DNA of 64,000 nucleotides from an uncultured Verrucomicrobiae bacterium (GCA_963731265.1 CAVSUE010000001.1:128001-192000), one strand, 5' to 3'. Positions 34,842 through 38,496 are shown, counted from the first letter of the stretch. Program-made: numbers and translations. The notes: generated by a model from the sequence alone, not told the origin.

Positions 34842-35507
34842 ATGAAACCAAAATCTATAGGAATTATAGGTGGAGCAGGTCCCTTAGCAGGAGCTTTTTT
34901 ACTCAAGCGTATTCTTTCTCTTTCAGGGAAAGTGTATGGCTGCTACAGAGATGCCGACTTCCCGCAAGTATTTTTGATTAGCTTTCCTTTCTCGGAAATG
35001 CTTTCCCCCAATATGGATATTGCAAAGCTGCGAAAAGAGTTAAGTGGATGTCTAGAGCAACTGCGCAAAAACGGTGCTTCTGTTCTAGCAATCGCTTGCA
35101 ACACCCTCCACGCATTCTTAGATGAAAAAGATGAATTAAGTGATTTAGTTCACTTGCCCCGTACGTTAGCAGAAGAGATGTCGCTATCTGATAAACCTTT
35201 AGTTTTTTGCACCTCAACGTCGGTGCAATTTGGGCTACACAAACAATATTTCCCCTGTATTTATCCTGATACTCAAACACAGCAGGAAGTGGATAGGATT
35301 ATCGATCAAATTCTTAGGGGGGCTGATCAATCAGTCATTCTCGAGAAATTGGAAAAGTTACTTCTAGCACAAACAACACATACAGTCATTTTGGGATGTA
35401 CAGAATTATCCCTCTTTTCTGCTCATTTATGTGTGCCGAATAAGTTAATTCTAGATCCATTAGAAGTGATGGCCAATAAAATATTGAAAAAAAGTTTTTT
35501 AAAATAA
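34842..35507 (+). CDS. Aspartate/glutamate-family (cofactor-independent) amino-acid racemase
   Basis: IGIIGGAGP, catalytic Cys pair in ACNT and GCTEL. Confidence 0.9.
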   Translation: MKPKSIGIIGGAGPLAGAFLLKRILSLSGKVYGCYRDADFPQVFLISFPFSEMLSPNMDIAKLRKELSGCLEQLRKNGASVLAIACNTLHAFLDEKDELSDLVHLPRTLAEEMSLSDKPLVFCTSTSVQFGLHKQYFPCIYPDTQTQQEVDRIIDQILRGADQSVILEKLEKLLLAQTTHTVILGCTELSLFSAHLCVPNKLILDPLEVMANKILKKSFLK

Positions 35508-35519
35508 CAGGAAATAATT

Positions 35520-36500
35520 ATGTCTTTTATATCTGAAGCATCCTTGTTACGCCCAAGTTGGTTAGACATTCAGAAACCTAGGGAAAAAATCCAATTGCGA
35601 ATTTTCTCTGAGCCTTCTTCACCCGAGCTGATTGTGAAACAATTGGCTTCGATAGAAGGCCCCGTTGATGTTTATTTTTGGTATGAAGGCTCTCTATGCT
35701 TGCCACAATCTGGTGCAGTGTTTATGAAGGAACAGTTTTTTAATCCGCTTTATAAATTAAAGGGGGATGTCAAACTGTGTCTTTACTCACTTAGAGCTTG
35801 GGATTTCAAAAGAAACATCAATACTATTGCATCTTCAACACCACTTGGGGAGGTTATCAATCGTATTAATGCAGCAGCTATTGAATGCATCTATTCTTCT
35901 TCTTTTTTCCGATACTGTACGCAGGTTTCGGCAGAAAGCGATCTATATGCATTTATAAGAGATGAATTACCAAAAAAAGAATGGCTTTTTAAACTTTCAG
36001 CAACCCAGAAAAAAAGTGGCACTACAATAAGTGCTTTTTTTAATGAACGATCATCTCTGTTCGATTGCATTAAGGAATTGGATCTCTCTTCCGCCTATTC
36101 TCTCATGCAATATGTGGAAGGATATTATTTAATTCAAGAATCCGTAAAGAAAGGATTGCTGAATGGACAAAAGAGGATTGAAATTGCTTTTGTATTGCCG
36201 AATGATGAAAGCAAGTATTATGCAGATCTGCCGAAAGATATTGAAAAAATGCTCCAATTGGATTTTGGGAAAGATCTAATTGGTGTCGAAGTCAATATTT
36301 CATTTCAGTTTTTCCAATATGGAGACTCCATAACTTCCAGGCCTTATATCGATAAGCGACGTAAGGCTCTTAAAGTAGAATCAGGAGAAATTGGATCTTA
36401 TTTCGATTATCTCTCTTCACAATCATTTTCTCAAGAACAACCAAGAATGCCATTCTTTACCCCTCGAGATGTCATTCACAATCTAAATGGATGGTATTAA
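35520..36500 (+). CDS. Uncharacterised protein, probable TyrRS (class Ic) catalytic-domain paralogue lacking HIGH/KMSKS
   Basis: Ordered motifs VYFWYEGS, LYSLRAW, IYSSSF, YSLMQYVEGYYL, IEIAFVLPNDESK; the ORF is secure, the fold is inferred by eye. Confidence 0.55.
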   Translation: MSFISEASLLRPSWLDIQKPREKIQLRIFSEPSSPELIVKQLASIEGPVDVYFWYEGSLCLPQSGAVFMKEQFFNPLYKLKGDVKLCLYSLRAWDFKRNINTIASSTPLGEVINRINAAAIECIYSSSFFRYCTQVSAESDLYAFIRDELPKKEWLFKLSATQKKSGTTISAFFNERSSLFDCIKELDLSSAYSLMQYVEGYYLIQESVKKGLLNGQKRIEIAFVLPNDESKYYADLPKDIEKMLQLDFGKDLIGVEVNISFQFFQYGDSITSRPYIDKRRKALKVESGEIGSYFDYLSSQSFSQEQPRMPFFTPRDVIHNLNGWY

Positions 36501-36501
36501 T

Positions 36502-37854
36502 ATGAATATCTCAATATTTGTTTCCATGCTTTTTTGCCTTCAGTTTTTTTATTGGCTTGTGGGTCGACGTGCCTCGAGAAATTTAAAAGGAAAGGAAGAC
36601 TACTTCTTAGCGGGGAAAAGCATTCGGCTTTTCCCCTTGATGATGACTTTTCTTGCTACCCAAGTAGGAGGGGGAGTAATCCTTGGAGCTGCAGATGAAG
36701 CCTATCAATTTGGTTGGCCAGTCCTACTTTATCCAATGGGAGCAGCTTTGGGTTTGATTTTACTTGGTTCTGGCATTGGTAGTAAGTTAGCGGGATTTCA
36801 GGTTTCCACCGTGGCTCAAATTTTTGAGGTCGCTTACGGTTCTGGGAGACTAAGAAAGATAGTCTCTGCTCTTTCGGTAATCTCTTTATTTATGATTCTG
36901 GTCGCCCAAATTATAGCCTCGAATAAGTTTTTAGTAAGTTTAGGATTTAACAATATCCCCTTGTTCATCTTATTTTGGTCTATTGTGATTATCTATACAA
37001 CTCAAGGAGGTTTAAGAGCCGTTATCTCTACTGACATGGTTCAAGCGGCCTTTTTCTCGAGCATTTTTCTGCTATGTTTTGGTTTTGTTCTTTTCTTTGA
37101 ACCCACTATCTCACTTATGCAAATACCACACCTGGAAAGTTTTGCCAATGTCTCATCAAAATTATGTGGATGGCTATTAATGCCGCTTCTTTTCATGGTG
37201 ATAGAACAAGATATGGGACAACGCTGCTTTGCGGGAGCTTCGCCTCGGATAGTCTCAAAGGCTTCTTTTTTAGCAGGGGTTTGTACAATGGTTATTTGCG
37301 TAGTGCCTGTATTTTTTGGTTCTTTGGCAAATGTCACAGATCTTGAAGTGTCTCAAGGGAGCAGTGTTTTAATGGCAATGATTGCAAAGACAACCAATCC
37401 CTGGATAACTGCCTTAGTCGGGTGTGCTGTTCTCGCTGCAATCATTTCTACTGCCACTTCCCTTATTAATGCAATAAGTTCAAATTTATCGAGTGATTTT
37501 AAACTCTCTTTTCTTCAAAACGTAGATTCTATGAAGGCAGTAAAAGGAATTACGTGCATAATCTCAATTGGAGCCATATTTTTTGCATTCTATTTCGATA
37601 ACATTGTCGATTTGTTAATTCAAAGCTATGAGCTTTCAGTCAGCTGTCTGTTTGTCCCTGTGATAATGGCCTTATTCAAAAGAAAAGGAAACTTTATCTC
37701 TGCTTGCACCGCTATCATTTTAGGTGCCATAGGCTTTGTTCTATTCCGAATCTACCCCATTGATTTCCCCAAAGAGATCCTCAGTCTCTTGTTATCGATG
37801 CTGGGATATGGTGTCGGAGAAGTTGTAAGCAAATATCGTTTAGAAGCAGCATAG
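36502..37854 (+). CDS. Sodium:solute symporter (SSS family)
   Basis: DYFLAGK, ATQVGGG, YTTQGGLRAVISTDMVQ, QDMGQR, LAAIISTA. Confidence 0.92.
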   Translation: MNISIFVSMLFCLQFFYWLVGRRASRNLKGKEDYFLAGKSIRLFPLMMTFLATQVGGGVILGAADEAYQFGWPVLLYPMGAALGLILLGSGIGSKLAGFQVSTVAQIFEVAYGSGRLRKIVSALSVISLFMILVAQIIASNKFLVSLGFNNIPLFILFWSIVIIYTTQGGLRAVISTDMVQAAFFSSIFLLCFGFVLFFEPTISLMQIPHLESFANVSSKLCGWLLMPLLFMVIEQDMGQRCFAGASPRIVSKASFLAGVCTMVICVVPVFFGSLANVTDLEVSQGSSVLMAMIAKTTNPWITALVGCAVLAAIISTATSLINAISSNLSSDFKLSFLQNVDSMKAVKGITCIISIGAIFFAFYFDNIVDLLIQSYELSVSCLFVPVIMALFKRKGNFISACTAIILGAIGFVLFRIYPIDFPKEILSLLLSMLGYGVGEVVSKYRLEAA

Positions 37855-37857
37855 GAG

Positions 37858-38496
37858 ATGTTTATGCAAGGCAAAATTGCTACTTTTCTCGAGCTCCAAG
37901 CCATTCCTTATCGAGACAATAAGGAGAGTTTGATCCTTCTAGCCTCAACAGTTCTCTCTGAATACCGCAGAGAAAATTCTGGCGTACAGTCTGTTTTAGT
38001 AAGAGAGTTTGTATCTCGTAAATTACAAAACATTCAAAAACAACTGAGGCCCAACATGAAGCTTCTTGTAGTAGAGGGTTATCGTAGTTTAACTTATCAA
38101 GAAGCTTATTTCCTAAAAGAACTTCACAATCAGCTCGAAGAAAAACCCTCTTGGACCTTAGAGGCTATCTTAGAGCGGACGCATCAATTTGTAGCGCTTC
38201 CAAGTGTAGCTGGGCATCCTACTGGTGGAGCCATCGATCTCACAATTATCTGCGATGGCAAAGAAGTAGATATGGGTGGGAAAATTGCAGATTTCAGCGT
38301 GCCTGATCTACTTTCCACCTACTCGCAACAAATAACAATAGAACAATCTAATTGGAGAATTTTTCTACATGATCTGATGGTAGCAGAAGGCTTTGCTCCT
38401 TTCTATGGAGAGTGGTGGCATTTTTCTTATGGAGACAGAGAGTGGGCAGCATTTTATGAGCAACCTGCTGCCATTTATTCACCTATTTTTAACTAA
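37858..38496 (+). CDS. VanX/DdpX-like D,D-dipeptidase (M15 zinc peptidase)
   Basis: EGYRS, HPTGGAIDLT and EWWHFSYGD zinc motifs. Confidence 0.9.
   Translation: MFMQGKIATFLELQAIPYRDNKESLILLASTVLSEYRRENSGVQSVLVREFVSRKLQNIQKQLRPNMKLLVVEGYRSLTYQEAYFLKELHNQLEEKPSWTLEAILERTHQFVALPSVAGHPTGGAIDLTIICDGKEVDMGGKIADFSVPDLLSTYSQQITIEQSNWRIFLHDLMVAEGFAPFYGEWWHFSYGDREWAAFYEQPAAIYSPIFN

Follow-up and report, generated by a model that had tools for sequence, protein, structure and literature searches.

We analysed a stretch of 64,000 nucleotides (nt) from an uncultured Verrucomicrobiae bacterium (GCA_963731265.1, CAVSUE010000001.1:128001-192000; hereafter the window, whose numbering is used throughout), concentrating on four co-oriented genes at 34842-38496. 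A preliminary description, made from the sequence alone, had taken these genes for a candidate new system composed of a racemase, a derivative of a class Ic aminoacyl-tRNA synthetase, a sodium symporter and a D,D-dipeptidase. The genes, and the flanking elements considered as transcription signals, are as follows.

34842-35507, + strand: gene 1, racemase, 221 amino acids (aa)
35520-36500, + strand: gene 2, 326 aa
36502-37854, + strand: gene 3, sodium:solute symporter (SSS) family transporter, in-frame ATG at 36502 (alternative start at 36487, 455 aa)
37858-38496, + strand: gene 4, M15 peptidase, 212 aa
34316-34841, + strand: upstream intergenic region, 526 nt of non-coding sequence before gene 1, presumed promoter region
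38622-38657, + strand: hairpin with a perfect 16-bp stem and a 4-nt loop, 125 nt past the stop codon of gene 4

The coordinates of the open reading frames (ORFs) bear out the spacing first described, namely gaps of 12 nt between genes 1 and 2, 1 nt between genes 2 and 3, and 3 nt between genes 3 and 4; the second of these would become a 14-nt overlap if gene 3 started at 36487. The start at 36502 is favoured because, with gene 3 begun there, the orthologues in six related loci align from residue 1 (tblastn). Consensus scans for promoters and terminators performed at the chance level given by shuffled sequences (14 found versus 13.4 expected; 5 versus 4.1), and the single, weak sigma-70-like match upstream of gene 1 (34763-34790) was not above chance; therefore, the status of the four ORFs as an operon rests on spacing and synteny, from which co-transcription is predicted. 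The hairpin downstream of gene 4, with arms that are 100% complementary, folds at -28.7 kcal/mol (z = -5.95; 0 of 200 shuffles folded equally well); it is not followed by a T-run, and it is a possible end of the transcript. The same four-gene order recurs in two divergent genomes (loci L010 and L020 of the survey described below), whose gene 2 proteins share 57% and 39% identity, respectively, with the window copy; the arrangement is more than chance. No obvious signal peptide was seen in any of the four proteins.

Gene 1 matches the Pfam family Asp_Glu_race (PF01177; 40.7 bits, cutoff 31) and aligns to the aspartate racemase of Pyrococcus (1jfl; 1.1e-11) with CNTLHAF and GCTELS falling on the two catalytic-cysteine motifs; the corresponding residues, C86 and C186, do not vary among the 21 racemases linked to gene 2. 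The scores remain under the NCBIfam equivalog cutoffs, both for the best model, the cysteate racemase CuyB (79.7 versus 190), and for asp_race (54.1 versus 93.1). By these matches, the gene 1 product is a cofactor-independent two-cysteine racemase/epimerase of the Asp/Glu/hydantoin racemase superfamily. Gene 3, which matches the Pfam family SSF (PF00474; 89.7 bits, cutoff 22.8) and is far under the cutoffs of all NCBIfam equivalogs (PanF, PutP), is by the same type of evidence a transporter of the SSS family. The product of gene 4 is likewise assigned as a cytoplasmic M15 zinc peptidase of the VanX/DdpX type, by a match to Peptidase_M15 (PF01427; 55.8 bits, cutoff 27) and by an alignment to VanX (1r44) in which H-x2-G-x-A-x-D and EWWH are in register (zinc ligands H/D/H, catalytic E). 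VanX/DdpX-type enzymes hydrolyse D-Ala-D-Ala. Gene 4 shares the zinc ligands, the catalytic Glu and the cytoplasmic location with the D-Ala-D-Ala dipeptidases VanX, DdpX and PcgL; however, it is far under the cutoffs of the VanX and DdpX equivalog models (37.7 versus 320 and 40.3 versus 176, respectively), and its neighbourhood is not that of a van or ddp operon. What the preliminary description had said of these three genes, i.e., both catalytic cysteines in gene 1, an SSS transporter in gene 3 and the VanX/DdpX zinc motifs in gene 4, thus holds in the profile searches and alignments.

The gene 2 family and its genomic partners

Searches of Pfam, NCBIfam and the PDB sequences gave no match for the gene 2 protein of the window. 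A word-indexed search recovered 136 relatives, for which every source name given is "hypothetical protein" and among which the named organisms are Candidatus Protochlamydia naegleriophila and Chlamydiota/Chlamydiales metagenome-assembled genomes (MAGs). An exhaustive profile search extended the family to 290 cluster representatives (50% identity) at E <= 1e-3, with 234 at <= 1e-10 and 117 at <= 1e-30; these are mainly from Chlamydiota, with a few from Coxiellaceae and Legionellaceae. A literature search, in which most subscription journals were not covered, returned no description of the family or of the operon, in line with the earlier remark that the operon was not recognised as described; having found no annotation and no paper, we consider the family to be previously undescribed.

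Conservation was assessed in an alignment of 102 members, reaching down to 21% identity. Five residues are invariant (Y193, Q197, E200, E230 and Y234), and a further set is conserved in at least 90% of the members: W54, G57, L91, W94, S160, D188, S194, Y198, F224, L226 and P227, together with N228, Y233, F265, R274, P275 and Y276. The presence of Ser at position 90 was considered as a mark of D-specific, racemase-linked proteins and was rejected: it is a trait of the window's own clade (clade A, below), the residue is Asp in 78 of the 102 members, and the racemase-linked copies in L023, L032, L034, L035 and L036 carry Asp.

To define the partners of gene 2, we scanned contigs from one genome per species for neighbouring genes, using tblastn with the window proteins and Pfam. 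This gave 37 loci, of which 35 were assessable (L017 and L018 were excluded, the relevant flank being cut). A racemase gene adjoins gene 2 in 23 of the 35 loci, often at 10-20 nt and in both gene orders. In clade A, 18 of the 21 assessable loci have it, always upstream of gene 2; outside this clade, it is upstream in L023 and downstream in L032 (Coxiellaceae MAG), L034 (gammaproteobacterial MAG), and L035 and L036 (Legionellaceae MAG). An SSS gene lies 3' of gene 2 in six loci (L001, L003, L010, L011, L013 and L020), and an M15 gene in two (L010, a Waddliaceae MAG, and L020). The conserved core is the racemase and gene 2; as homologues of gene 2 mostly occur without SSS and M15 genes, the four genes are no obligate system. 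The earlier proposal of a single four-gene system, for which adjacency across genomes had been set beforehand as the test, therefore survives for the racemase and gene 2 and not for the transporter and the peptidase. The four-gene order shared by the window, L010 and the deep-branching L020 is either an ancient trait of the clade with many losses or the result of repeated assembly. In L010, the racemase matches fall in two reading frames (5272-5928), a frameshift or a sequencing error.

A quick maximum-likelihood tree resolves three groups: clade A (22 rows including the window; chlamydial, racemase-linked; SH-aLRT 98), a gammaproteobacterial clade with gene 2 and a racemase (3 rows; SH-aLRT 99), and clade B (9 rows; SH-aLRT 94), in which there is no racemase and gene 2 is followed by a GNAT gene (Acetyltransf_3) and/or an S-adenosylmethionine (SAM) methyltransferase gene, usually with a divergent MFS gene as well. 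One chlamydial MAG holds both a clade-A copy (L005) and a clade-B copy with GNAT and methyltransferase genes (L026), from which we conclude that clades A and B are paralogous lineages able to coexist. The clade-A copy of this MAG has no racemase and is substituted at conserved positions (S160P, Y193H), as are the two other racemase-less copies of the clade, L015 (S194G, Q197H) and L022 (S194P, Q197R, R274K, Y276H). Conversely, the window protein and 16 intact racemase-linked clade-A copies keep S160, Y193, Q197, E200, E230, Y234, R274 and Y276. This pattern at otherwise invariant positions is evidence that gene 2 depends on the racemase.

Fusions and other neighbours link the family to aminoacyl-tRNA synthetases and to tailoring enzymes. 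At least six of the 290 representatives (150 listed) exceed 400 aa. P0184 and P0209 are fusions of gene 2 to a complete synthetase resembling histidyl-tRNA synthetase (HisRS) with its anticodon-binding domain (hisS, 225 and 223 bits; cutoff 286.75), and P0182, P0212 and P0236 are fusions to GNAT domains. P0246 (no Pfam match) and the ORF of L035 are 92% identical and both carry a C-terminal extension, which in the L035 ORF matches the HGTP anticodon-binding domain. Separate HisRS-like genes adjoin gene 2 in L035 and in L022, the latter with two copies, a HisC-like aminotransferase gene and a methyltransferase gene; taken together, the HisRS-like paralogues fused to or adjoining gene 2 score 223-250 bits, just under the hisS cutoff. 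In L023, a 1026-aa fusion of HisRS-like and HutH-like (histidine-ammonia-lyase-like) domains (2028-5108) lies upstream of the racemase and gene 2. Other neighbours include a second HutH-like lyase (L005), DAHP synthase (L008), EPSP synthase (L012) and the Trp repressor (L034). Taken together, these partners are a hint of His or aromatic substrates; they belong to other clades, and not to the window. A GNAT::SAM-methyltransferase fusion is encoded downstream of gene 2 in L037 (6800-8296).

Motifs and predicted fold of gene 2

We compared the 102-member alignment with a profile of 13 tyrosyl-tRNA synthetases (TyrRS), comprising that of E. coli and 12 plasmid-collection genes; the residue equivalences given here follow linear sequence order. 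Neither ATP motif of class I synthetases was found in gene 2: no column of the region 58-70 has His in at least 20% of the members, versus H-[LIV]-G-H in 12 of 13 TyrRS, and at the position of the KMSKS-type loop there is R274-P-Y276 with no K-x-x-K-[ST], versus K-[FM]-[GS]-K-[TS] in 13 of 13 TyrRS. For the putative aminoacyl pocket, TyrRS-like motifs are present. Y193-x3-Q197-x2-E200, with all three residues present in 102 of 102 members, has the spacing of Y-x3-Q-x2-D, which is invariant in 13 of 13 TyrRS; W54-[YF]55-x-G57 stands at the end of the core strand before it, at the place of Y-x-G in TyrRS, and N228-D229-E230 stands after the next strand, at the place of G-x-D-Q. In the M. jannaschii TyrRS, Y32, Y151, Q155, D158 and Q173 bind tyrosine (Sauguet 2011, PMC3105412). 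A similar pocket is known in the cyclodipeptide synthases (CDPSs): AlbC, which lacks HIGH and KMSKS, has G35, Y178 and E182 superimposed on G34, Y151 and Q155 of that TyrRS, and the pocket helix of the family bears a conserved Tyr and a conserved Glu, with another Tyr past the next strand (PMC3105412). Against this pocket, gene 2 has the invariant Y193, Gln rather than Glu at +4, E200 at +7, and Y233/Y234 past the next strand.

Models of two divergent members were obtained with AF2, namely the window protein (predicted local distance difference test score, pLDDT, 88.7; predicted template-modelling score, pTM, 0.83) and L029 of clade B, which is about 28% identical to it (pLDDT 95.8, pTM 0.93). 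The 326-aa window protein is modelled as one domain with a disordered tail past about residue 300, and a C-terminal tRNA- or anticodon-binding domain is absent. In Foldseek searches against the PDB, the best match was a TyrRS for both models: 7sc6_A for the window protein (E 7.5e-4, probability 0.99, template-modelling score, TM, 0.32; one match at E <= 1e-3) and 4ts1_A for L029 (E 5.1e-3, probability 0.85, TM 0.33; no match at E <= 1e-3). Among the 45 matches listed for the window protein, 34 are TyrRS and one is a tryptophanyl-tRNA synthetase (TrpRS); among the 46 listed for L029, the numbers are 31 and five, where TyrRS includes engineered TyrRS and the assignment was made from the row descriptions. 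With a clade-B protein as the query, 15 of 30 feature matches in the ESM Atlas belong to a set typified by a cluster with 24% CDPS (PF16715) members (score 0.93, 188 shared features), and its structure matches include tRNA-synt_1b (TM 0.47/0.59), CDPS (0.51/0.56) and eukaryotic TyrRS (0.54). The window protein as the query yielded sub-threshold leads (0.79-0.82) to unnamed and aromatic prenyltransferase-like clusters, which were set aside since a second Atlas search and Foldseek pointed elsewhere. The two types of search suggest that gene 2 has a Rossmannoid fold remotely and weakly resembling those of class Ic synthetases and CDPSs.

The island around the operon

As first described, the operon is situated inside a tRNA-Phe island, which is supported by repeats of the 3' core of the tRNA and by low GC. 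The 17-nt core (25885-25901) recurs at 26034-26050 with no mismatch and at 39493-39509 with one (three matches in all, 0 expected by chance), and a further copy of the post-tRNA flank lies at 31252-31318; GC is 0.37-0.40 over 34-40 kb, versus mostly 0.43-0.52 elsewhere in the window. Because both the core and the flank are repeated, the sequence suggests a composite island at 25828-39509 formed by successive insertions. None of the genes in the island was recognised as an integrase. The features of the island and its border are:

25828-25902, + strand: tRNA-Phe (GAA), proximal island border
26295-27347, - strand: transposase of an IS3-family insertion sequence (IS)
27379-28431, + strand: PRTase-CE domain protein
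28474-30471, - strand: AbiEii toxin / AbiEi-like (DUF6088) pair
31879-33408: TnpB/Cas12f-like RNA-guided nuclease homologue, 509 aa, its 3' end overlapping the 3' end of the SDR gene by 17 nt
33392-34315, - strand: SDR gene, convergent to the TnpB-like gene
38689-39308, - strand: split HIT-related gene, probably a pseudogene judging by its two parts (38964-39308, profile 1-75; 38689-38931, profile 103-160)
39493-39509, + strand: direct repeat of the tRNA-Phe 3' core with one mismatch, likely the far border
39571-40271: overlapping genes for a nucleotidyltransferase (DUF6036) and a CopG/BrnA-type antitoxin, likely a toxin-antitoxin pair, located just beyond the distal repeat

The flanks of the racemase and gene 2 also differ between genomes, and the distribution of the pair is patchy. 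In L009 (6001-8251), gene 2 is split by a DDE transposase (6675-7919), and a second, fragmented copy of the pair is present in L027 (5386-6721), on the same contig as L007. The variable flanks, the split and the degraded copies, and the island setting are the reasons to regard the pair as an accessory, mobile module.

Elsewhere, the window encodes RodA; a 280-aa protein (2094-2936) with collagen-like Gly-X-Y repeats and weak matches to the Scl and Lcl adhesins; and three consecutive 578-aa ORFs at 44456-49822. The first of these (44456-46192, - strand) is of the TIGR02452 family, and the other two (46340-48076 and 48086-49822, + strand) are tandem paralogues with weak matches to the Legionella ankyrin effectors AnkY/AnkH, by which a host-directed role is possible.

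Possible pathway and rival explanations

The reading that we prefer, at a probability of about 40%, is that gene 2 encodes a new CDPS-like enzyme of aminoacyl transfer that acts with a partner epimerase, comparable to the NozA/NozR pathway of nocardioazine. Under this reading, gene 2 would derive from, or converge on, the catalytic domain of a class Ic aminoacyl-tRNA synthetase, as CDPSs do, and would keep the aminoacyl-binding pocket (Y-x-G past the first core strand, the Y193-x3-Q197-x2-E200 helix and N228-D229-E230) after loss of the ATP motifs. It would then not activate amino acids itself and would take a pre-activated aminoacyl group, either from the cellular pool of aminoacyl-tRNA or, in clades that have one, from the fused or adjoining HisRS-like synthetase. 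Transfer of this group to an amine would form an amide, i.e., a dipeptide or a diketopiperazine. Gene 1 may provide a D-amino acid as the acceptor, or may epimerise the product, as NozR does with the product of a CDPS. The window and two other lineages would have recruited genes 3 and 4; the transporter may carry the substrate or the product, and the peptidase may cleave a D-configured dipeptide, for recycling or self-protection. A D,D-dipeptide as the product found no support. In favour of this reading are the conserved pairing with the racemase, the substitutions in the racemase-less copies of clade A, the class Ic matches of two divergent models, the Atlas matches, the TyrRS-like motifs, the HisRS-like and GNAT fusions and neighbours, the tailoring-type genes of clade B, the precedent of nocardioazine, and the recurrence of all four genes in L010 and L020. 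What is shown comprises the identities of the genes, the pairing, the fusions and the resemblance in fold; an aminoacyl donor, amide formation, the sequence of steps and the functions of genes 3 and 4 are inferred.

CDPSs (AlbC, Rv2275, YvmC; PF16715) are a close known parallel: like the gene 2 protein as modelled, they are small, stand-alone Rossmannoids related to class Ic synthetases, and they lack HIGH and KMSKS (PMC3105412, PMC2922099); in their aminoacyl pocket, to which the motifs of gene 2 may correspond, a single helix carries the conserved Tyr together with an acidic or amide residue (PMC3105412). Legionella, Rickettsiella and chlamydiae harbour members of both families, and methyltransferase or GNAT genes are found next to CDPS genes (PMC2922099). 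The ESM Atlas, too, places clade-B gene 2 beside CDPS-bearing clusters. However, gene 2 differs from CDPSs in length (about 280-330 aa), in its own invariant motifs (LPNDExKYY and RPY), in the pocket residue, which is Gln as in TyrRS and not Glu, and in the absence of a PF16715 match (for the window protein; none among the families listed for 102 members). The CDPS motif G-x-S-x-x-N, which carries the acyl-enzyme serine (PMC2922099), is also missing from gene 2, as is the catalytic Ser. The fusions of gene 2 to HisRS-like and GNAT domains are a further difference, as only stand-alone CDPSs are described in the cited part of Aravind 2010 (PMC2922099). The same part notes CDPSs in Parachlamydia, Legionella and Rickettsiella, with a GNAT neighbour in Rickettsiella, and contains no mention of a racemase; the cited part of an overview of the CDPS family mentions neither racemases nor chlamydiae (PMC5816076). 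TyrRS and TrpRS of class Ic, for their part, are the nearest solved folds and have Y-x-G, Y-x3-Q-x2-[DE] and strand-x-D-[QE] in the same order as gene 2, which differs from them in lacking HIGH, KMSKS, the anticodon-binding domain and any detectable sequence or profile similarity.

The second parallel concerns the racemase. In the nocardioazine pathway (NozA/NcdA, NozR, NozMT), the nearest case that has been worked out, cyclo-L-Trp-L-Trp formed by a CDPS is turned into its D,D form by NozR, a homologue of Asp/Glu racemases, before a methyltransferase acts (PMC10156859). The likeness would be in the combination of a class-Ic-type enzyme with a two-cysteine epimerase of the Asp/Glu family, with SAM methyltransferase genes in other clades of gene 2. 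In Nocardiopsis, by contrast, the CDPS is canonical and the racemase homologue is at a separate locus (PMC10156859), whereas genes 1 and 2 adjoin and gene 2 belongs to another family. Dedicated paralogous synthetases of the VlmL/VlmA type (reviewed in PMC2922099) resemble the HisRS-like paralogues fused to or adjoining gene 2; there, however, the known acceptor enzyme has the GNAT (Fem/MprF) fold and not the class-I-derived domain proposed here, and the window operon itself has no paralogous synthetase.

A number of results weigh against this interpretation. At most one of the 102 members matched any given Pfam family, and the 25 families listed for them include neither CDPS nor tRNA-synt_1b (27 further single-member families exist). 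Searches of PDB sequences with phmmer and three profile searches returned only unrelated chains at E >= 0.13, and hhalign of the family against the E. coli TyrS and the TyrRS profile gave a probability of at most 0.5%. The TM of the class Ic rows in Foldseek, 0.28-0.38, is below the usual same-fold line, with root-mean-square deviations of 5.5-10.7 Å; no CDPS entry is among the matches listed for either model, and the resemblance to CDPS and TyrRS in the ESM Atlas is by the Atlas's own terms a lead, and of lead grade only. With regard to residues, the equivalences to TyrRS rest on linear order, and G57, although kept in 97 of 102 members, is followed by Ser at +2, the position of the CDPS nucleophile in G-x-S, in only eight of 102. 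The median isoelectric point of the family is about 7, giving no sign of a basic tRNA-binding surface, although a neutral charge is uninformative. As for the partners, 12 of the 35 loci have no adjacent racemase, and because SSS and M15 genes are so rarely linked to gene 2, their role in a shared pathway is weakly based. The claim in the preliminary description that gene 2 is a class Ic synthetase derivative is therefore upheld in part: the nearest solved folds, the absence of HIGH and KMSKS, and the HisRS-like fusions, which back a link to aminoacyl activation, speak for it, while the fold match is weak (best E 7.5e-4) and sequence and profile comparisons lend no support.

Several other explanations account for part of these data. 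A catabolic role, in which the SSS transporter imports a D-amino acid or D-dipeptide (e.g., from the digested peptidoglycan of prey bacteria in an amoebal host), the M15 enzyme cleaves it, the racemase converts D to L for an auxotroph, and gene 2 is accessory in binding or processing, is unlikely in our view. A transporter and a VanX-like dipeptidase in one operon and the lack of obvious signal peptides agree with it, and so does a transporter as the next gene in three lineages with gene 2 and the racemase, each time of another family (SSS; an APC permease in L034; MFS in L036), which fits uptake. Yet salvage assigns no role to gene 2, the best-conserved partner of the racemase, leaves the HisRS-like and GNAT fusions and the methyltransferase context unexplained, and must contend with the rarity of the M15 (2/35) and SSS (6/35) genes. 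We hold it to be rather improbable that gene 2 is not a ligase at all and is instead an amino-acid-binding pseudo-synthetase that regulates the racemase or serves as its partner (compare HisZ for HisG), or a trans-acting deacylase that removes D-aminoacyl-tRNA arising when D-amino acids in the cytoplasm are raised by the racemase. The absence of both the ATP motifs and the CDPS nucleophile is compatible with this, the invariant residues match, by motif, the amino-acid-binding and not the catalytic residues of TyrRS (PMC3105412), and the coupling to the racemase is tight, gene 2 decaying where the racemase has been lost. However, the further invariant polar residues (S160, D188, N228, E230, Y233, Y234, R274 and Y276) exceed the needs of a simple binding site, the neighbours of gene 2 in clade B, which lacks a racemase altogether, are GNAT, methyltransferase and MFS genes of a kind typical for the tailoring of small molecules, and fusions to complete HisRS-like synthetases are suggestive of consecutive reactions.

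The alternative raised in the preliminary description, that the operon feeds D-amino acids or a D-dipeptide to the chlamydial peptidoglycan, appears very unlikely. A racemase combined with an enzyme of the D,D-dipeptidase type, and RodA in the same window, are in its favour, as are the unusual routes by which Chlamydiae obtain D-Ala and D-Glu (PMC5885031, PMC3935232). But the low-GC tRNA-Phe island with its IS, TnpB and toxin-antitoxin genes, the patchy distribution, the variable flanks, and the split (L009) and degraded (L027) copies are the behaviour of an accessory module and not of a core cell-wall function. Moreover, gene 2 is found in MAGs of Coxiellaceae and Legionellaceae, families that have ordinary peptidoglycan pathways.

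Returning to aminoacyl transfer with a partner epimerase, a more far-reaching version, which we consider speculative and doubtful, would make the gene 2 family a third branch of ATP-independent, class Ic-derived enzymes beside the CDPSs, confined to bacteria living inside protists (environmental chlamydiae, Coxiellaceae and Legionellaceae). Its members would be supplied with the aminoacyl group by tRNA or, directly, by a class II HisRS-like synthetase fused to them and, with the epimerase, would build a dipeptide or diketopiperazine containing a D-amino acid, possibly derived from His or aromatic residues; once exported, this product would act on the host or on competitors. On this view, the fusions of class II and class I-derived domains would be the first instance of a synthetase lineage supplying another one inside one polypeptide chain.

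Obligate intracellular bacteria are thought to be almost devoid of secondary metabolism. The finding described here would be one of synthetase-derived, probably tRNA-dependent peptide formation with tailoring enzymes, and the operon of this chlamydia-like bacterium probably makes a small peptide containing a D-amino acid. If this is true, a conserved, horizontally mobile module of a synthetase-like protein and an epimerase would be a sign of small peptide metabolites at the interface of symbiont and host, and a new family would be added to the few systems that form peptides in a tRNA- or synthetase-dependent way, as a compact two-gene system for enzymology. If the product carries D-residues, this would be a second and genetically linked case of the CDPS-plus-racemase-homologue logic so far known from nocardioazine alone.

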